Assembly: GCA_029552125.1 (NCBI GenBank)
Contig: JAKPEE010000128.1
Location: 6,609-70,608, forward strand
From: Bacillota bacterium
GTDB taxonomy: Bacteria; Bacillota; Dethiobacteria; DTU022
Direction: 5' to 3'
DNA: 64,000 bases
Shown here: positions 17,862 through 48,555 of the stretch, one piece after another
How positions within the stretch are numbered: the first letter of the stretch is position 1
Layout: each line of letters begins with the position of its first letter
Notes under the pieces: generated by a model
What the model saw: the letters and a program-made list of their open reading frames with translations, nothing else
Told to the model about the DNA's origin: nothing
Database searches by the model: none
Translations under genes and position numbers: made by a program

Positions 17862-19016
17862 CTAACGGCGTTTCCGGCGCAGGATGGCATATCCCGCCGC
17901 CAATGCAGCCGCCCCGGCTAAGCCGAACAAGGGGAGGGCTCCGGCGGTTTTTGGCAGCTTCTTTTTGGGGGTAGGGGCTTCATCCCCTTCTCCGGGTTCT
18001 TCCCCGGGTTCTTCTTCCCCTTCGCCGGGTTCTTCCCCGGGTTCTTCTTCACTATCCTCAGCAACTATAAACGTGGCCTCGAGCGGGCTGCTCCATGAAG
18101 TGCCATCAGAGACGGCAGCCACTACGGTATACGTTCCCGGCGTGCTGATGTTGAAGCCGGCGCCGTCGTAGAGATACCTGTCTGCGGTTGTGGACGGGTC
18201 TGTTCCGGTTTCACCGGGAGTGACGGTATACCAGCACTGATGGGGGCTGCCAGGCATCCCCGTCGTGTCGATCGTAATTAAGGTCGATGTGTCGATATTA
18301 CCGCCGTTGGGGGTGAACCAGTTGGGCGGGTAGTAGACCGTAACGAAGTAGGTTTTGTTGGGAGTTCCACCGGGAGCTGATACTACAACATTGACCGTGG
18401 TGGCGCCATGCTGCAGGCCGGATAACGAGCAAAAGCCGCGTGCAAGGCCGTAAAGGGGGTCGCCTAAAGTACCGGGATTCCCGTTGAATGTGACAGTTGC
18501 ATTGGAATCGGCCAGAAAATAGCCGAAGTTAATGCTGCCGGTGATACGAGATGCGGTTGTATAGGCGGTTGTGTCGTAATGAAAGGGTGGGCTCCACATC
18601 CCTCCCCCGGTATTCCACAGGCTTACCAGCTCTTCGCTACCAAGGTAGGTGAACAGGTCGGCATCGCTCTCGGCGCTGCTACCCTCCGCCGTAGTTACGG
18701 TCACGTGTACCGTGCCGCTTCCCGCGGGCGCGGTAGCCGTGATCTTTGTGTCGGAATCAACAGTGAATTCGGTGGTGGCGACGCTCCCGAACTTGACTTC
18801 AGTCGCGCCGGTGAAGCCGCTGCCGTTAATCGTCACCACGGCTCCTTCGGCTCCCCATGGGTTACCCCGATAATTTACGGCGCTGCTCACCGTCGGCGCG
18901 GCCGCATAGGCCGTCAGCGGCGCAACGCTCATCACCAGCAGAACCATGATGATGAATATACACGGGAACAGTAAATAATGAGTTTTCCTGGCGGCATTTT
19001 GTGTTACAAAACGCAT
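17862..19016 (-). CDS. secreted cell-surface protein with an IPT/TIG-like domain, an acidic PGE repeat linker and an LPxTG-like anchor
   Basis: Signal peptide ..VAPLTAYAAAP. The IPT-like segment is GAVVTINGSGFTGATEVKFGSVATTEFTVDSDTKITATAPAGSGTVHVTV. Linker (EEPGE/GEG)n. C-terminal LPKTAG, then a hydrophobic stretch, then RRKRR. Confidence 0.75.
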   Translation of the reverse strand: MRFVTQNAARKTHYLLFPCIFIIMVLLVMSVAPLTAYAAAPTVSSAVNYRGNPWGAEGAVVTINGSGFTGATEVKFGSVATTEFTVDSDTKITATAPAGSGTVHVTVTTAEGSSAESDADLFTYLGSEELVSLWNTGGGMWSPPFHYDTTAYTTASRITGSINFGYFLADSNATVTFNGNPGTLGDPLYGLARGFCSLSGLQHGATTVNVVVSAPGGTPNKTYFVTVYYPPNWFTPNGGNIDTSTLITIDTTGMPGSPHQCWYTVTPGETGTDPSTTADRYLYDGAGFNISTPGTYTVVAAVSDGTSWSSPLEATFIVAEDSEEEPGEEPGEGEEEPGEEPGEGDEAPTPKKKLPKTAGALPLFGLAGAAALAAGYAILRRKRR

Positions 19017-19073: not shown

Positions 19074-19241
19074 TCAAAAAATATTGCCTTTGCTGCTTCC
19101 GCCGGCAAGCCGGCGGGTGGAGCCGGCCTGGACCTGGCTATCTCCAAAGAAAACATTGAACACCATAACGGCCGGATATGGGTTGAAAGTGAGCTAAACA
19201 AAGGGAGCATTTTTGCTGTTTCGCTGCCCATCTCCGGATGA
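19074..19241 (+). pseudogene. C-terminal remnant of a histidine kinase (HATPase_c tail)
   Basis: The frame reads ..GGAGLDLAISKENIEHHNGRIWVESELNKGSIFAVSLPISG*, which matches the G2-box/C-terminus of sensor kinases. A stop lies immediately upstream (19071-19073) and there is no upstream kinase body. Confidence 0.6.
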
Positions 19242-19259
19242 CGCCTTAAAAAAAAGCAT

Positions 19260-19358
19260 CCCGACCGATAAAGGTAACCCTTCCGAAAGGAAGGCTACAC
19301 AAAGCCATGGGTCTAAAGTTCGGGTACGAACCATGACCGCCAGGCCGCCGAAGTCGGG
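19260..19358 (+). promoter_or_regulatory. GEMM-I-like (c-di-GMP-I class) cyclic-dinucleotide riboswitch aptamer, copy 1 (orphan)
   Basis: P1 is CCCGAC...GUCGGG. Hairpin CCUUCC-GAAA-GGAAGG, linker ACACAAAGCC, second hairpin AUGGGUCUAAAG..CCAUG. It is nearly identical to copy 2 and resembles the V. cholerae Vc2 aptamer as I recall it (..GAAA..ACGCAAAGCC..CCUAAAC..). Confidence 0.55.
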
Positions 19359-19485
19359 ATTCTTGTATTTGTAGCGGGTTATATTCTCGATTCCGGCCTA
19401 AAAAGTAATTGTGTTCCTTCTGGCTGGTTCAAAAACATCCTTATTCTGGCCGTCCGGTGCTATGTCAAAGGCCTATTCGTTTTTT

Positions 19486-19731
19486 TCACATCCGGGCGTA
19501 CTTTTTTAATTTGAACACTTGCAGCACAACCATTACGACCGCCAGCAAAATAAGGGCAACGCCAAGCCATTTATTCGCGGTAACCATAAGAATAATGCCA
19601 ACAAAGACGAAGACCACGGCCGCAACAATTGTTTTGACCAGCCCTATACCGCTTGTGACCACGCCGGCGGTTTTTAAACCTTTAGCCAATTTTTCAGAGT
19701 CAAATTGATCGGGAACCATATTTTGGGTCAT
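19486..19731 (-). CDS. small two-TM membrane protein (81 aa)
   Basis: ATG (rc of 19729-19731) lies 9 nt after GGGGAGGA. There are two hydrophobic helices (VKTIVAAVVFVFVGIILMV, LGVALILLAVVMVVL). Confidence 0.55.
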   Translation of the reverse strand: MTQNMVPDQFDSEKLAKGLKTAGVVTSGIGLVKTIVAAVVFVFVGIILMVTANKWLGVALILLAVVMVVLQVFKLKKYARM

Positions 19732-20120
19732 AATTGGGCATCCTCCCCACTTAATGAATAAGTTTATAACCACTGCTAGGGGCAAAAAACGTTTTTCGTG
19801 CCGGTTACTCCCTTGTCAATATTATAGTGACAAACATAATCATGTCACAGCTCATACAAATTCCGGTGGAGAAACCTTTAAATGGGCATACCCCCTAAAA
19901 CTATTCTATTAAATTTAAAAATATTCCTGCTTAAAAGTAGGATAAATTTACTGGAAGCGGTGCACGGCAGTTGTCCCTGAAGCCACCCGGGGCTGATTGC
20001 AGCATATTAATAAATTCTTTGATTTTTCTCTATGCTTATGTTATTTTTGTCTTGCTCAAGCATATTCCTGGCCGCCGGTGCCGGGCTTGGAAGCCGACAA
20101 GACGACCATAGTGGTCGTCT

Positions 20121-21077
20121 TTGCAACCCGGGGAGAGTTTTACTCTGATGGCTACTGCGACAAACGAGAAGGGTCAGGCAGACGATTCGCTGGAAATAGC
20201 GGCTCCGGCATTGGAAAACGAAGAACCCGAACCGGAACCCGGTACCGAGCCCGAACCGGAAGCTCCTGCATCGGCCTCCAACAACGCCCCGGTCATTACC
20301 GCGATCAATTTTAGCTCTGAAGGAATAATTACCGGATGGACTTATACAGTTACTGCTGAGTGCAGCGACCCGGACGGTGATACCCTCACTTTTGAATGGT
20401 CAGCCAGCGGTGGGTCAATTTCAGATGCTACTGTTAACCCCATGACCTGGCAAGCCCCCAAGGTAAAAGGCGAATACAGCATTACTGTAACGGTGCGGGA
20501 CGGTCGTGGCGGGGTTGCCACCAGGAGCCAGGAGGTAAGCGCCAATCCTATTACCTTCGACCCTGTCCAAATTTATCAACTAAAGTCGATCACTATTCAA
20601 CCGGCAAGCACGGGACAGGTTGATTCAGAGGGACATATGGCCATCCCAAGTAATGCCGGAGATACAGACGCCAAAAGGGGTCTGCAGGGTTTTATCACCT
20701 TTGATTTAAGCAGCATACCGGATTCGGCTACAATAAGATCAGCACGGTTGGAAGTGGTTTCTTATGATACTCTGGGCGATCCCTTTGGCAGCCTCGGCCC
20801 CTTACGGGTCTATGTTCATAACTACGGCACACTCGACGCTGCCGACTATACGCCGCCTCCGGTCAATGGTGCGATTGTTCGCTTTAGCAACGAGGCGGAA
20901 TTAAACAACCCGGCTGTGCAAGAATTAAACTCAATAGGTATAACCGGCATTCAGGATGCCCTTTCCAGCGACAAGTTTCAGATCCGGCTTCAGTTTAATA
21001 ACAAGGAAACTGATAACGACAGTGTGACAGATGTACTGAGAGGTCAGTATAGATTATTTATTAGCTACGCGTATTAG
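20121..21077 (+). CDS. PKD/Ig-like plus DNRLRE-like secreted-protein body with no intact signal peptide (5' end probably degraded)
   Basis: The PKD-like segment is APVITAINF..TAECSDPDGDTLTFEWSASGG..YSITVTVRDGRGG. The C-terminal ..GFITFDLSSIPDSATIRSARLEV.. resembles DNRLRE. Plausible upstream pieces lie in two other frames (see the findings entry). Confidence 0.55.
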   Translation: MQPGESFTLMATATNEKGQADDSLEIAAPALENEEPEPEPGTEPEPEAPASASNNAPVITAINFSSEGIITGWTYTVTAECSDPDGDTLTFEWSASGGSISDATVNPMTWQAPKVKGEYSITVTVRDGRGGVATRSQEVSANPITFDPVQIYQLKSITIQPASTGQVDSEGHMAIPSNAGDTDAKRGLQGFITFDLSSIPDSATIRSARLEVVSYDTLGDPFGSLGPLRVYVHNYGTLDAADYTPPPVNGAIVRFSNEAELNNPAVQELNSIGITGIQDALSSDKFQIRLQFNNKETDNDSVTDVLRGQYRLFISYAY

Positions 21078-23493: not shown

Positions 23494-24309
23494 ATGATTA
23501 AAATGAGGAGGTACTTTTTTGTCCTGGTACTGGCATTGGCCGTGGCGTTGATCGTGACTGCCTGCGGCGGGAGCAAAGAAAACGGCGGCGCCGAACCCGG
23601 CGAGTTGGAAGAGGAAACAGGTGATTCCGGCGATGTCGCTGATGAGCCGGTGATTATTGAGGGTGAATGGTATTTCATTGAAGGTGAGTTTCACCAGTTT
23701 AATGACCTTAGCTTTATCACCTACTTTAAAGAATATGAAGCCACCTATACTTACGGTGAAGAGGTTTACTATCATACCAAGTACCTTGGGGATGACAAAG
23801 TTGGAGGCACAAAGACCAGGCATTTTGCCTTTAAAGTAGAGAGCCCAAGTATGGAACGGCCATCCGAAGCGGAGTTGTGGTTCACAGAAACAGGCGAGCT
23901 TGTGCAAGTGGGTGGCCGGGATGAGAAAGGTAAGTTTGTTACCGAAACCGACCCCGATGCCCTGGAGTATTTATATAGTAGCAGTTTTTTTGATCATTAC
24001 TGTGACCCCTTCGTGAAAGGACCCGAGGAGGTTGAACTTGCGTTTGGAGCTATTTTTACCGATCCCGAAGAGCTCGAAAGGGCCAAAACTGAAAGAGGCT
24101 ATGTGATTAATGGAGTCAGTTCCCAAAAAAGAGATCTCGGCGCAGGAAAAGTTACGGTTGTCCACTATGATTTTACCACTCCAAGTGTGAGTCAATGCAT
24201 TTACGAGATAGGGAAAATTGGGGATAAATATTTGATCGTCTATTACGTTGAAAAATACGGCGGCGGCGACGTAGAGCTGAAAGTGACAAAGGCTGTTCCC
24301 TTTAAATAA
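23494..24309 (+). CDS. lipoprotein, paralog A
   Basis: Lipobox ..ALIVTAC|GGSKENGG followed by an acidic linker. It is collinear with ORF 25643..26470 (shared GEWYF..GEFH.F.DLSFI.YFKE, KYLGDD, ELW.TETGELVQ, GAGKVTV.HYD, IGDKY). Confidence 0.75.
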   Translation: MIKMRRYFFVLVLALAVALIVTACGGSKENGGAEPGELEEETGDSGDVADEPVIIEGEWYFIEGEFHQFNDLSFITYFKEYEATYTYGEEVYYHTKYLGDDKVGGTKTRHFAFKVESPSMERPSEAELWFTETGELVQVGGRDEKGKFVTETDPDALEYLYSSSFFDHYCDPFVKGPEEVELAFGAIFTDPEELERAKTERGYVINGVSSQKRDLGAGKVTVVHYDFTTPSVSQCIYEIGKIGDKYLIVYYVEKYGGGDVELKVTKAVPFK

Positions 24310-24379
24310 CTGCAGCCGGCCGCCGGCAGACCGGCATCAAATGGAGGTATTGAACTACTTCATAGCCTCTTTATCAATA

Positions 24380-24417
24380 GTGAGCCAGGGAGATACGATC
24401 CCGGCTCACTTTTTTTA
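24380..24417 (+). terminator. rho-independent terminator of lipoprotein A
   Basis: GTGAGCC(A)GGG-loop-CCCGGCTCAC followed by TTTTTTT. Confidence 0.75.
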
Positions 24418-24519
24418 AACCTGTGCATTTCCCCTGTGCTCGATGAATTAAAAGAACAATACCTACAGTGCCTTGACACGATCGGCAGAGTAAAAAAAGT
24501 GGATTCATGACAAAAGTAA

Positions 24520-24528
24520 TGTTACAAT
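24520..24528 (+). promoter_or_regulatory. extended -10 promoter candidate (TGtTACAAT) for the riboswitch transcript
   Basis: TGTTACAAT lies about 16 nt upstream of the aptamer P1. I identified no good -35. Confidence 0.4.
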
Positions 24529-24543
24529 AAAAAAAAATAGTAT

Positions 24544-24644
24544 CCTGACCGATTAAAGGTAACCCTTCCGAAAGGAAGGTGCGCACAAAGCCATGGGTCT
24601 AAAGTTCGGGTACGAACCATGACCGCCAGGCCGCCGAAGTCGGG
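24544..24644 (+). promoter_or_regulatory. GEMM-I-like (c-di-GMP-I class) riboswitch aptamer, copy 2
   Basis: Same architecture as copy 1 (P1 CCUGAC...GUCGGG with one G-U pair, GAAA hairpin, GCGCACAAAGCC, UCUAAAG). It sits about 95 nt upstream of the ATG at 24738 on the same strand. Confidence 0.6.
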
Positions 24645-24737
24645 ATTGTTTATTTTGTACCGGGATATATTCTCGTTTCCCACTTCCGTCCCGGCTATCA
24701 TGGATTGCGTATTAATACTAATGATGGAGGAAGTGGT

Positions 24738-25244
24738 ATGAGTAAAAAAGTAGTTGTGTTCCTGCTGGTGTTTCTCCTGGTTGGGTGCGGCGCGGTATTG
24801 GCCAACGGAGGTATGACGATCCTTACCGGTGACGAAAACGGCGATGAAACCGGCGATGAAACCGAAAACGAGACCGGAGACGAGACCGGAGACGAAACCG
24901 GGGATGAGAGCGAAGACGAAACCGGAGAAGAGACCGGTGATGAGACAGGCGATGAAACCGGTGACGAAACCGGGGAAGACGGCGAAGAAGGCGACGGCGG
25001 CCCCCCGCCCTGGACTCCTGATCACGCCAGGGAACACTGGGAGTGGTCACAGTCCGGTGACGAAGGCCCGCCTCCCTGGGCCCCGGCCCATGCCCGGGAG
25101 CACTGGGAATGGTCGCAGTCCGGGCAGGAAGGTCCTCCGCCCTGGGCCGCTGCCAAGGGCAAGGGGAAGGGAAATGACAAAAATCTGGACAAGAATAACG
25201 GCGGCGATCCAGGGGATGAAGATGTAGAAGGGGAGGACGACTGA
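24738..25244 (+). CDS. acidic tandem-repeat lipoprotein
   Basis: ATG lies after GGAGGAAGTGG. Lipobox FLLVGC. There are about 13 x (G-D/E-E-T) tetrapeptide repeats. Two full 22-aa units follow, GPPPW(T/A)P(D/A)HAREHWEWSQSG(DE/QE), plus a truncated third (GPPPWAAAKG). The C-terminal tail is K/D/E-rich. Confidence 0.7.
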   Translation: MSKKVVVFLLVFLLVGCGAVLANGGMTILTGDENGDETGDETENETGDETGDETGDESEDETGEETGDETGDETGDETGEDGEEGDGGPPPWTPDHAREHWEWSQSGDEGPPPWAPAHAREHWEWSQSGQEGPPPWAAAKGKGKGNDKNLDKNNGGDPGDEDVEGEDD

Positions 25245-25309
25245 CCTTTTGCCCTAAATCTTCCAAGTTCTCAACTGCCCGATGATCCACAGTGAATGTC
25301 CGGGAACAG

Positions 25310-25343
25310 AACAGCGCAGCTTAAACGGCAGCGCTGTTTTTTT
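25310..25343 (+). terminator. rho-independent terminator
   Basis: AACAGCGC-(13 nt)-GCGCTGTT followed by TTTTT. Confidence 0.7.
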
Positions 25344-25642
25344 ATCCGAGTCAAGGGGAAAAGGCTGGGTGTTTAGGCCGCCCTCTTACAAGGGATAGGC
25401 ACGGCAAACATAAAAAGGTTGAGCGGCAAAACTTTGGAGCTGCCATGATTTGATGAAATTTCAGTATCATCGGCGGACATTAAAAGTTTGCCGGAGAAAC
25501 GGTATAAAATCACCCCTGGGGTGATTGCCATTCCGGTGGGAAAGAATTATTATCCATTTAAAATAAAAATAAAAACATTTAAAAAAACAAGGGCTTTTTA
25601 GGCCTGGTTGAAGGAGGATTAAAATGTTGAAGGAGGATTAAA

Positions 25643-26470
25643 ATGAGGAGGTACTACTTTTTTGTTCTGATCCTGGCATTGGCCGTGGCGTTGACCGTAA
25701 CTGCCTGCGGCGGGGACAAAGAAAACGGCGGCGCCGAACCCGGCGGGTTGGAAGGGGAAACAGGTGATTCCGGCAAAGAGCCGGTGATTACCAAGGGAGA
25801 ATGGTATTTCGTTGACGGTGAGTTTCATAAATTTACTGATCTAAGCTTTATCGCTTACTTTAAAGAATTCGAAATAACCCTTTATGATGAGTTTTTTTCA
25901 GAAACCTGTTACCTTCATTCCAAGTACCTTGGGGATGATACAGTTCTTGGCACAAAGACCGGGCATTTTGCCATAACAGCGTCGAAAGAGGAAGATGGAC
26001 AGAAGACGTTAGAAGGGTATGTGGAGCTGTGGTACACAGAAACAGGTGAGCTTGTGCAAATGGGGATGCCGGGAAGGGAAGAGTTGGTCATCGAAAACAG
26101 CCCCGATATGATAAATGAAAGGGCGCAGGATATTATCGACGAATTCAATCTAGCTCAATTCTTGATGTATCACGGTCTGTTTGAAGAGGAGCATGAAAAA
26201 GGGTATGCAGCTCTTTTTAACGACCCCGAGTTTTACGCCAGTAAAGTCGCTGATAGTGCGTATGTGATCAATGAAATCAGTTCCCAAAAAAAAGATTTCG
26301 GCGCAGGAAAAGTTACCGTTATCCACTATGATTACGCCTTTTCGGATTCGTCGTATAGTTTTATCAACGATATAGCGAAAATTGGGGATAAATATATGTT
26401 CGTCTATATCCATGATAAAATGGAAGACGTAATCGAGTTTACTGTGACGCGGGCTGTTCCCTTAAAATAA
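25643..26470 (+). CDS. lipoprotein, paralog B
   Basis: Lipobox ALTVTAC|GGDKENGG. Collinear with paralog A. Confidence 0.75.
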   Translation: MRRYYFFVLILALAVALTVTACGGDKENGGAEPGGLEGETGDSGKEPVITKGEWYFVDGEFHKFTDLSFIAYFKEFEITLYDEFFSETCYLHSKYLGDDTVLGTKTGHFAITASKEEDGQKTLEGYVELWYTETGELVQMGMPGREELVIENSPDMINERAQDIIDEFNLAQFLMYHGLFEEEHEKGYAALFNDPEFYASKVADSAYVINEISSQKKDFGAGKVTVIHYDYAFSDSSYSFINDIAKIGDKYMFVYIHDKMEDVIEFTVTRAVPLK

Positions 26471-48401: not shown

Positions 48402-48555
48402 CCGTTTTCTTCGGGGTCTGGTGAGAAGGAACATTCCTTCAATTCCGAACCGGCGGTGATACCCGGCCTGGAGCCGGGATAAGCCCGCGAGCCGCAAGGC
48501 TGACCCGGTGCGATTCCGGGGCCGACAGTATAGTCTGGATGGGAGAAGAAACGGC
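48402..48555 (+). promoter_or_regulatory. FMN riboswitch (RFN element)
   Basis: P1 is CGUUUUCUUC...GGGAGAAGAAACG. Conserved blocks GGGGUCUGGUGA, CCGAACCGGCGGU, AGCCCGCGAGC, GGUGCGAUUCCGGGGCCGACAGUAUAGUCUGGAUGGGAGAAG. It is directly upstream of ribD. Confidence 0.9.

Follow-up and report, generated by a model that had tools for sequence, protein, structure and literature searches.

A predicted class-I c-di-GMP riboswitch, probably a translational OFF switch, precedes the gene of an acidic repeat protein in an uncultured Bacillota bacterium

Combining covariance-model searches, RNA folding, duplex energies and comparison of related leaders, we analysed a 64,000-nucleotide stretch of DNA (hereafter the window) from a Bacillota bacterium whose source habitat is probably anaerobic digesters, and we propose that the gene at 24738-25244 is preceded by a functional class-I c-di-GMP riboswitch. 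This riboswitch would probably operate as a Vc2-like translational OFF switch, which shuts off the gene at high c-di-GMP. Judged from its sequence, the element at 24542-24646 is a true c-di-GMP-I aptamer of canonical type and, as such, an ordinary new entry in a well-known RNA family; the members of this textbook riboswitch class number in the thousands, so that another example is routine. Ligand binding, the direction of the switch and its action on translation, as opposed to transcription or RNA stability, are predicted from sequence and folding models.

The aptamer was identified by Infernal cmscan (Rfam 15) as a match to the c-di-GMP-I model RF01051 at 24548-24638 of the + strand, with 61.8 bits where the gathering score is 35, an E of 1.1e-9 that puts chance out of consideration, and an alignment over the full length of the model (1-87). 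This clearly positive result bears out the earlier note, made from the sequence alone, which had proposed a GEMM-I-like riboswitch upstream of an acidic repeat protein gene: the aptamer lies in the 5' UTR of this gene, with no terminator between the two. The elements that the note listed (-10 element, P1, GAAA-capped hairpin, linker and second hairpin) are all found where it had placed them, and P1 (CCUGAC/GUCGGG) is longer than noted, with 8 bp (Table 1). The UCUAAAG...CAUGA segments are aligned by cmscan with the conserved CUAAg...uAuGa columns of the model, which predicts a tetraloop-receptor motif in P3. The cmscan alignment is irregular in two places: a 2-nt insertion lies beside the closing pairs of P1a, and P1b has a mismatched A-C at its base. 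The three-helix junction (P1, P1a/P2 and P1b/P3) is complete, and its helices show pairing-preserving base changes that come from few sequences. In P1, the A24548-U24640 pair is replaced by G-C in the L009 and L017 leaders, and U24546-G24642 by C-G in copy 1 of the window (the duplicate described below); in P1a, U24560-A24585 is replaced by C-G in L009.

Table 1. Coordinates of the features of the leader, its gene and the duplicated copy in the window
Feature	Position	Strand	Sequence or partner	Remarks
Upstream flanking terminator	24381-24416			Read from sequence
Extended -10	24520-24528	+	TGtTACAAT	From sequence; inferred transcription start ~24535-24537
P1 5' strand	24542-24549	+	AUCCUGAC	Pairs with 24639-24646
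P1a hairpin	24564-24579	+	CCUUCC-GAAA-GGAAGG	GAAA tetraloop at 24570-73
Linker	24581-24592	+	GCGCACAAAGCC	Read from sequence
P1b	24589-24632	+		Contains receptor-like UCUAAAG at 24598-24604
Anti-sequestor 5' arm	24625-24645	+	GCCAGGCCGCCGAAGUCGGGA	Aptamer 3' half including the P1 3' strand; RNAduplex against 24678-24695
P1 3' strand	24639-24646	+	GUCGGGAU	With the preceding GAAG, also the anti-sequestor 5' arm
U-rich tract	24646-24658	+	UUGUUUAUUUUGU	Directly 3' of P1; possible RNA polymerase pause site
Anti-SD region	24678-24695	+	UCCCACUUCCGUCCCGGC	CCACUUCC (24680-87) and UCC (24689-91) pair with the SD
Near-invariant block	24701-24719	+	UGGAU(U/G)GCGUAUUAAUACU	Apical part of the sequestor hairpin
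Shine-Dalgarno (SD) region	24726-24736	+	GGAGGAAGUGG	Sequestor 3' arm; duplex energies
CDS, 168 aa	24738-25244	+		Putative secreted acidic repeat protein, pI 4.05
Intrinsic terminator of the monocistronic unit	25323-25346	+		7-bp stem, then TTTTTTT (terminator scan)
Relic paralogous copy	19257-19433	+		Intact aptamer 19263-19352 (67 bits)

The aptamer and the gene are on the same strand, downstream of the extended -10 element and within a unit flanked by terminators on both sides. The -10 element pointed out by the earlier note is indeed present, and both orthologous leaders possess a TATAAT-like -10 at the same distance from the aptamer (TGtTATAAT in L016, TATAAT in L009/L017). Its -35 is poor, which explains why this promoter is missing from the list of a consensus scan. 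We retained as the start codon the ATG at 24738, which is preceded by GGAGG (24726-30), and set aside the first in-frame TTG (24705). The spacing of about 95 nt between the aptamer and the ATG is refined to 91 nt from the last base of P1, or 99 nt from the end of the Rfam model.

The region between the aptamer and the start codon (24645-24737) holds no terminator-like site in the terminator scan, in keeping with the earlier remark that no U-tract terminator is obvious there, and we therefore rejected a classical terminator/antiterminator model. To find variants of the leader we searched 115 genomes of the order at the DNA level and scanned metagenome and genome collections for exact-pattern matches to the conserved platform block, and recovered no leader version beyond the same three; the other matches to the block pattern are coincidental and lie inside unrelated sequence. 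Our covariation data come from these three distinct, related versions only (that of the window, L016 and L009), from all collections searched. As the MAFFT alignment misplaces a 7-nt indel and thereby shifts the 5' region of L009, the helices were evaluated in each sequence separately instead of by column-wise counting of pairs, and two of the "compensatory" pairs in L009 hinge on the placement of this indel.

Two mutually exclusive helices, a sequestor and an anti-sequestor, are conserved in all three known leader versions. The sequestor (24680-24691 with 24726-24736) has energies of -18.0, -18.8 and -18.8 kcal/mol in the three leaders (shuffle fractions of 0.008, 0.001 and 0.0035), and its pairing is preserved through changes from U-A to C-G and from A-U to G-U. 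The anti-sequestor duplex, computed with RNAduplex, amounts to -20.5 kcal/mol in the window, -23.6 in L016 and -20.8 in L009 (shuffle fractions of 0.016, 0.026 and 0.040), and this helix is part of the unconstrained minimum free energy (MFE) fold of each of the three leaders. The alternation is most easily seen at U24640, which has either A24548 (in P1) or A24682 (in the anti-sequestor) as its partner: the U24640-A24682 pair is U-G in L016 and C-G in L009, where the C pairs with a G in both helices. The block at 24701-24719 differs among the three versions at a single U/G position between variable flanks, and a similar block occurs in L018. Pairing of this block with the 5' half of the aptamer, as seen in the MFE fold of the window, was rejected, since L009 does not appear to maintain it.

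When the aptamer was enforced in the folding, the mean unpaired probability of the SD was 0.02, 0.11 and 0.01 in the three leaders, as compared with 0.49, 0.62 and 0.40 when the anti-sequestor was enforced. The leader therefore holds, by computation, both an anti-SD:SD helix that coexists with the folded aptamer and an alternative partner for the anti-SD. The ligand-free fold is more stable than the aptamer fold by 3.8-8.6 kcal/mol, a gap that is within reach of the c-di-GMP binding energy. Simple folding of divergent leaders of homologous genes did not clearly separate the bound state from the free state in L018, L020 and L051; L054 was also among the divergent leaders folded for the direction of the switch.

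Because P1 and both helices stay paired through the base changes among the three leaders and because constrained folding masks the SD when the aptamer is folded, we propose that the switch is probably translational and OFF. This lends support to the suggestion of the earlier note that control may be translational, through a conserved SD-sequestering helix that alternates with the helix between the aptamer 3' half and the anti-SD. Transcription of the leader would be driven by the extended -10 promoter (24520-24528). In the absence of ligand, the 3' half of the aptamer including the P1 3' strand (24625-24645) would pair with the anti-SD region (24678-24695), leaving the SD free and the mRNA translated. 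Upon binding of c-di-GMP, P1 and P1b would be locked and the anti-SD released, and the latter (CCACUUCC-G-UCC, 24680-24691) would pair with GGA-GGAAGUGG (24726-24736), thereby masking the ribosome-binding site. Such a compact, terminator-free platform, with the alternation of U24640, could serve as a clear-cut model of how c-di-GMP switches control translation in Gram-positive-type bacteria.

The proposed logic resembles that of Vc2, located upstream of tfoY in Vibrio cholerae, which is reported to be an OFF switch that represses translation by masking a ribosome-binding site far away from the aptamer (PMC9262584, which cites Inuzuka 2018; bioRxiv 10.1101/617340). The two RNAs have in common the Rfam family, the G20/A47/C92 pocket, the GAAA tetraloop with its receptor and the gating by P1, whereas they differ by the phylum, the downstream gene and the unrelated sequence of the platform. 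Furthermore, unlike in Vc2, the anti-SD of the window would alternate with the aptamer's own 3' half, and the role in sRNA stability proposed for Vc2 has no counterpart in our data. Cd1, in front of the flagellar operon of Clostridioides difficile, is a Bacillota GEMM-I aptamer with OFF logic (PMC9262584), as predicted here, but it uses a separate intrinsic terminator, whereas none separates the aptamer from the start codon in the window.

Control could be exerted on transcription instead, with translational control as a secondary or additional layer, if the ligand-stabilised P1 and the U-tract at 24646-24658 formed an intrinsic terminator or strong pause (an "aptamer-embedded terminator"), or if masking of the SD exposed the leader to Rho. 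We regard this as rather unlikely, even though the OFF direction agrees with our main model and at least six U in the eight positions directly 3' of P1 occur in 10 of the 13 related GEMM-I leaders (background of 0.068), despite their otherwise different platforms. First, such a stem would have a three-way junction of 90 nt inside it, a non-canonical geometry for a terminator, and the scan finds none. Second, the U-tract is weakest in L009 (5/8 U). Third, the L001 and L002 leaders possess the same U-tract together with a separate canonical terminator further downstream, an arrangement more in line with a pause site than with a terminator. The broader proposal that, in this Bacillota order, the ligand-locked P1 and the conserved U-tract add an intrinsic terminator or an obligatory pause to the masking of the SD is improbable in our judgement; if true, the aptamer itself would be the terminator hairpin and provide direct transcriptional OFF control without a separate platform terminator. 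The conserved U-tract after P1 is an unexplained feature of interest in this clade.

An opposite, ON logic, in which the binding of c-di-GMP raises the expression of the protein, is unlikely. Surface and matrix proteins are commonly induced by c-di-GMP, an example being the collagen adhesion protein controlled by Bc2 in Bacillus thuringiensis (PMC4933901), and the unconstrained ensemble of the window also has its SD largely paired (unpaired probability of 0.05), which makes the thermodynamic contrast weak for the window sequence. The partner of the SD in that ensemble is the freed 5' end of the leader, a long-range pairing of the window's MFE fold that we treated as due to chance, as it is absent from L016 and L009. 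Against an ON switch, the anti-SD has no competing partner once the aptamer is folded, the SD of each of the three leaders being then paired to 89 % or more, and its sole conserved competitor is the aptamer's own 3' half, which would be unavailable when the ligand is bound. As described in the same source (PMC4933901), Bc2 is, like the aptamer of the window, a GEMM-I element in the 5' UTR of a monocistronic gene for a surface or secreted protein in Bacillota; it differs by its unrelated protein and its terminator-based platform, while the direction predicted for the window is OFF.

Concerning the ligand, the earlier note had left open the choice between c-di-GMP and cGAMP. It is known that G20, A47 and C92 of Vc2 have defined contact roles, and that GEMM-Ib riboswitches, which respond to 3'3'-cGAMP, are marked by an A at the position of G20 (PMC6140456). 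The positions equivalent to Vc2 G20, A47 and C92 in the cmscan alignment, using a correspondence between model columns and Vc2 numbering that we inferred ourselves, are the canonical G24558, A24587 and C24634. From this G/A/C pocket, which lacks the GEMM-Ib A20, the aptamer is predicted to sense c-di-GMP and not cGAMP. It is very improbable that the same aptamer would sense another cyclic dinucleotide, be it the 3'3'-cGAMP of GEMM-Ib or a variant ligand. The literature presents position 20 as a factor in selectivity and not as a hard filter (PMC9262584), and two relatives in the order (L026 and L027) have the c-di-GMP-I-GGC variant model as their best match. However, GEMM-Ib riboswitches (e.g. 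Gs1761 of Geobacter), which share their fold and Rfam clan with the aptamer of the window, have an A (PMC6140456) where the window has G24558. In addition, cmscan of the window reported RF01051 alone, without any left-out clan overlap and without any match to the c-di-GMP-I-GGC, c-di-GMP-I-UAU or c-di-GMP-II models, and the genome encodes GGDEF cyclases. That GGDEF and HD-GYP-type domains are both encoded in the genome also speaks for the main reading.

A second aptamer of the window, at 19263-19352, is a relic duplicate without promoter or gene. Of the platform, the relic copy has kept the initial portion, and of the CDS about 25 nt at the 5' end; a 59-column alignment gap accounts for the loss of the promoter, the SD, the ATG and the greater part of the anti-SD. 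The copy adjoins a truncated HATPase_c remnant with its end at 19241. We rejected as a gene the 99-aa open reading frame that follows it on the + strand (19409-19708), which has no SD and a frame different from that of the remnant CDS. It is hardly credible that the leader at 24542-24646 is likewise a decaying or non-functional copy without a regulatory role, as the orphaned duplicate in the same window and its own score, the lowest among the six complete copies of the genome, might suggest, since it has retained the promoter, aptamer, platform, SD and an intact open reading frame, in an arrangement that a second species of the genus and a different genus share, with helix-preserving base changes.

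The encoded protein comprises a signal peptide with the lipobox LLVGC, a (GDET)n acidic linker, for which a 12-nt tandem repeat (x12.4) codes, the unit GPPPW-xP-HAREHWEWSQSG repeated 2.5 times, and an acidic tail. Residues 17 or 23 to 168 would make up the mature protein. It found no match in a profile search of Pfam, NCBIfam and PDB. Its AlphaFold2 (AF2) model (overall pLDDT of 60.7) consists of two short helices only, one per Trp-rich "HAREHWEWSQSG-EGPPPW" repeat (pLDDT 86-89), and a disordered linker. The earlier designation as a lipoprotein stands in part: the lipobox is present, but its cysteine (Cys17) is not conserved in the orthologue of the same genus (VGGG in G046, as compared with LVGC in the window protein and LAGC in the orthologue from G028) and is replaced by Gly or Ser in most relatives, where LAG(G/S)G is followed by an A-x-A site of the signal-peptidase-I type. 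The protein is predicted to be secreted and is possibly lipid-anchored.

This family of proteins occurs in uncultured anaerobic Bacillota, and its link with the riboswitch is conserved across several genera. Among the proteins with the GPPPW motif from this uncultured Bacillota order that have readable upstream DNA, seven out of eight are preceded by a GEMM-I aptamer at 58-99 nt, whereas the distant homologues are without a GEMM-I aptamer. Our analysis would assign c-di-GMP as the regulatory input of an entirely uncharacterised protein family, whose small secreted members combine an acidic linker with Trp-rich GPPPW/HAREHWEWSQSG helices. In view of the conserved riboswitch-gene link, these proteins are candidate surface or matrix factors of the motile-sessile switch.

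Reading of positions 24300-25500 recovered all the GEMM-I elements that the earlier note had picked out by eye (see table), and the covariance-model check that it had called for returned a match well over the gathering score. Using cmscan on the whole window with Rfam 15, RF01051 (c-di-GMP-I) aligned to 24548-24638 (+) over the full model (positions 1-87), scoring 61.8 bits (gathering score, 35; E = 1.1e-9), which is far above chance level; no c-di-GMP-II or variant-model match occurred in the window in this search. The element is almost certainly a genuine, canonical c-di-GMP-I riboswitch, belonging to an RNA family that is already known.

Features of the riboswitch unit and its protein. Positions are those of the window; SD, Shine-Dalgarno; P1, aptamer helix; sequestor, anti-SD:SD helix; anti-sequestor, helix between the aptamer 3' half and the anti-SD.
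Feature	Sequence or content	Position	Strand	Remark
Upstream gene's terminator		~24381-24416		sequence reading
Extended -10	TGtTACAAT	24520-24528	+	sequence reading
P1, 8 bp	AUCCUGAC with GUCGGGAU	24542-49 with 24639-46	+	extends CCUGAC...GUCGGG
GAAA-capped hairpin	CCUUCC-GAAA-GGAAGG	24564-79	+	sequence reading
Linker	GCGCACAAAGCC	24581-92	+	sequence reading
Second hairpin	UCUAAAG	24598-24604	+	sequence reading
Anti-sequestor, 5' arm	GCC-A-GG-C-CG-CC-GAAGU-C-GGGA	24625-45	+	aptamer 3' half including P1 3' strand
U-rich tract	UUGUUUAUUUUGU	24646-58	+	directly 3' of P1 3' strand
Anti-sequestor, 3' arm	UCCC-ACUUC-CG-U-CC-C-GGC	24678-95	+	
Sequestor	CCACUUCC-G-UCC with GGA-GGAAGUGG	24680-91 with 24726-36	+	
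Start codon	ATG	24738	+	GGAGG 24726-30 ahead
ORF	168 codons	ends 25244	+	
Terminator 3' of gene		25323-46		terminator scan
Signal peptide	MSKKVVVFLLVFLLVGC	N-terminal		first segment of the protein
Acidic linker	~12 GDET-type units			encoded by a 12-nt tandem repeat
Repeats	2.5 copies of GPPPW-xP-HAREHWEWSQSG	after linker		
C-terminal part	K/G-rich spacer, then acidic tail			

A47 is the intercalating adenine of the ligand pocket. In the cmscan alignment its equivalent is A24587, the first A past the P1a closing pairs; the equivalent of Vc2 G20 is G24558, which immediately precedes the pair that opens P1a (model position 11; our own mapping), and that of C92 is C24634, the conserved C past P1b (model position 83). 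[quoted passage not shown] Since the pocket is the canonical G/A/C, c-di-GMP is the predicted ligand. The window's own genome, a MAG of 2.56 Mb, encodes GGDEF domains (three clear matches and one weak) and one HD-GYP-type domain (HD_5), which is the sole phosphodiesterase-type domain found and lies on contig C117 in one 602-aa frame together with a GGDEF domain; the assembly, 87 % complete, yielded no EAL domain. In two relatives (L026:1500-1588 and L027:177-268), the c-di-GMP-I-GGC variant model beats RF01051 in clan competition.

Everything searched yielded no more than three distinct versions of the leader, namely those of the window, of L016 (= L046; same genus, 93 % identical to the window leader) and of L017 (= L009 = L035 = L044; another genus, 81 % identical). 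Both a sequestor and an anti-sequestor, mutually exclusive, were found in all three, the comparison covering these three related sequences. First, the sequestor duplexes have energies of −18.0, −18.8 and −18.8 kcal/mol, equalled by fractions of 0.008, 0.001 and 0.0035 of the shuffles, and the anti-sequestor duplexes −20.5, −23.6 and −20.8 kcal/mol (shuffle fractions 0.016, 0.026 and 0.040). Second, the sequestor pairing is preserved through base changes: A-U becomes G-U in L016 and L009, UCC(G):(C)GGA becomes CCCG:CGGG in L009, and, following a 7-nt deletion in L009, UCGCUUCC is paired with GGAAGUGA, the anti-SD partners in this leader hinging on the placement of the indel. Third, U24640 pairs with A24548 in P1 or with A24682 in the anti-sequestor; its equivalent in L009 is a C with G as partner in both helices, and in L016 the anti-sequestor partner is a G, forming a U-G pair. 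That a single nucleotide should go on pairing in either of two helices is to be expected of a switch. The block UGGAU(U/G)GCGUAUUAAUACU (24701-24719), apical in the sequestor hairpin, is near-invariant in the three leader versions and recognisable in the L018 leader; within it are a GGA motif and a palindrome rich in A and U, and it might serve to bind a protein or to enhance translation.

With the Rfam aptamer structure and P1 enforced in folding, to imitate the bound state, the SD core was unpaired with a mean probability of 0.02, 0.11 and 0.01 in the three leaders; with the anti-sequestor enforced the values were 0.49, 0.62 and 0.40. The anti-sequestor belongs to the unconstrained MFE in all three, which beats the aptamer-enforced fold by 6.5, 8.6 and 3.8 kcal/mol, and picomolar-to-nanomolar c-di-GMP binding could outweigh a gap of this size. 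Without constraints, the ensemble of the window's leader still has the SD largely paired (unpaired 0.05), its partner being the freed 5' end; L016 and L009 do not conserve this pairing. In four more divergent leaders, simple folding showed no clear contrast. We propose that c-di-GMP binding would lock P1 and P1b, thereby freeing the anti-SD, which would mask the SD and turn translation OFF. The folding models thus incline us, with some reserve, towards a plausible Vc2-like translational OFF switch. Vc2 is described as an off-switch (bioRxiv 10.1101/617340) that represses translation via a masked RBS distant from the aptamer (PMC9262584), and the proposed platform would resemble it in masking the SD. 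The absence of an obvious terminator between the aptamer and the start codon, remarked on in the earlier note, was borne out by a terminator scan.

Of 13 related GEMM-I leaders, 10 have a U-rich tract directly 3' of P1 (background, 0.068), those named besides the window being L001, L002, L018, L020, L051, L054, L055 and L056. This tract may be a polymerase pause that widens the ligand-binding window, a reading in keeping with L001 and L002, in which a separate canonical terminator is present as well. That P1 and the U-tract themselves act as a terminator embedded in the aptamer is less likely than a pause, and we consider it improbable. L001 and L002 each have an obvious intrinsic terminator, and the 5' junction strand GACCGACAA takes part in an antiterminator; this suggests that they, too, follow OFF logic.

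The regulated protein (168 aa, pI 4.05) had no match in Pfam, NCBIfam or PDB-profile searches. AlphaFold2, run on an 11-sequence alignment, left the linker disordered and returned one confident helix per HAREHWEWSQS unit (pLDDT 86-89). Its designation as a lipoprotein has no more than partial support: this protein and the G028 orthologue (LAGC) have the lipobox Cys, but the residue is Gly in the same-genus orthologue and the Cys is missing from the wider family, which retains an A-x-A signal-peptidase-I site. The orthologous gene at L009:3001-3515 is frameshifted within the acidic repeat in a low-coverage ENA assembly; L017, which comes from a GTDB genome and has an identical leader, has it intact (174 aa), and the breaks in L009 probably arose when the repeat was assembled.

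In seven genomes of the window's order (G000, the window's own, and G046, G028, G033, G044, G049 and G030), a GEMM-I aptamer lies 58-99 nt upstream of a GPPPW-motif protein. One genome of the order, G003, has such a protein without the upstream aptamer; G075 (locus truncated at a contig end) and G084 (locus near a contig end) were left out of the count. Metagenomes contain homologues with the same repeat, and the upstream aptamer is missing from five more distant ones on metagenome contigs. In further genera, the aptamers most closely related to this one sit upstream of another class of small acidic secreted proteins, whose translations show an almost unchanged signal peptide as well as 'SEVAKAVHEALSGD...FGxxVSExAR' repeats; these loci (L019/L054, L022, L023, L026 and L029, other genera of the order) encode Gly/Asn-rich tails. 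The window's genome has seven RF01051 matches, one truncated by a contig end, and four others (L001-L004; contigs C58, C139 and C154) precede genes whose translated ORFs read as Flp-pilin, TadE-like or pilus-like/pilus-assembly-like. This lineage thus appears to have a conserved GEMM-I regulon made up of small secreted acidic modular proteins, besides the Tad/Flp pilus genes. The riboswitch is attached to a secreted protein family that is uncharacterised, and the family's link to GEMM-I is shared by several genera of this uncultured order of Bacillota.

The riboswitch-gene unit is insulated. A second, intact-looking GEMM-I aptamer (19263-19352, 67 bits, cmscan) is part of a duplicate (19257-19433) with 90 % identity across ~150 nt. 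Besides the aptamer, this duplicate retains the start of the platform and ~25 nt from the 5' end of the CDS; the SD, the ATG and most of the anti-SD are lost in an alignment gap of 59 columns, and the homology starts downstream of the promoter, leaving it without one. It adjoins a truncated HATPase_c (histidine kinase) remnant at 19089-19241, no + strand gene follows it, and it points antisense towards a 99-aa membrane-protein ORF (19486-19785, −). We take this copy for a recent relic left by a rearrangement. The riboswitch unit lies between two paralogous lipoprotein genes (23494-24309, 271 aa; 25643-26470, 275 aa) that have a VTAC lipobox and belong to no Pfam family, and surface-protein genes are abundant nearby, such as those for an LPXTG/TIG protein (17862-19016) and a PKD-domain protein (20121-21077). 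The window also carries an FMN riboswitch (RF00050) at 48403-48554 (+), with 94.6 bits (E 1.6e-20).
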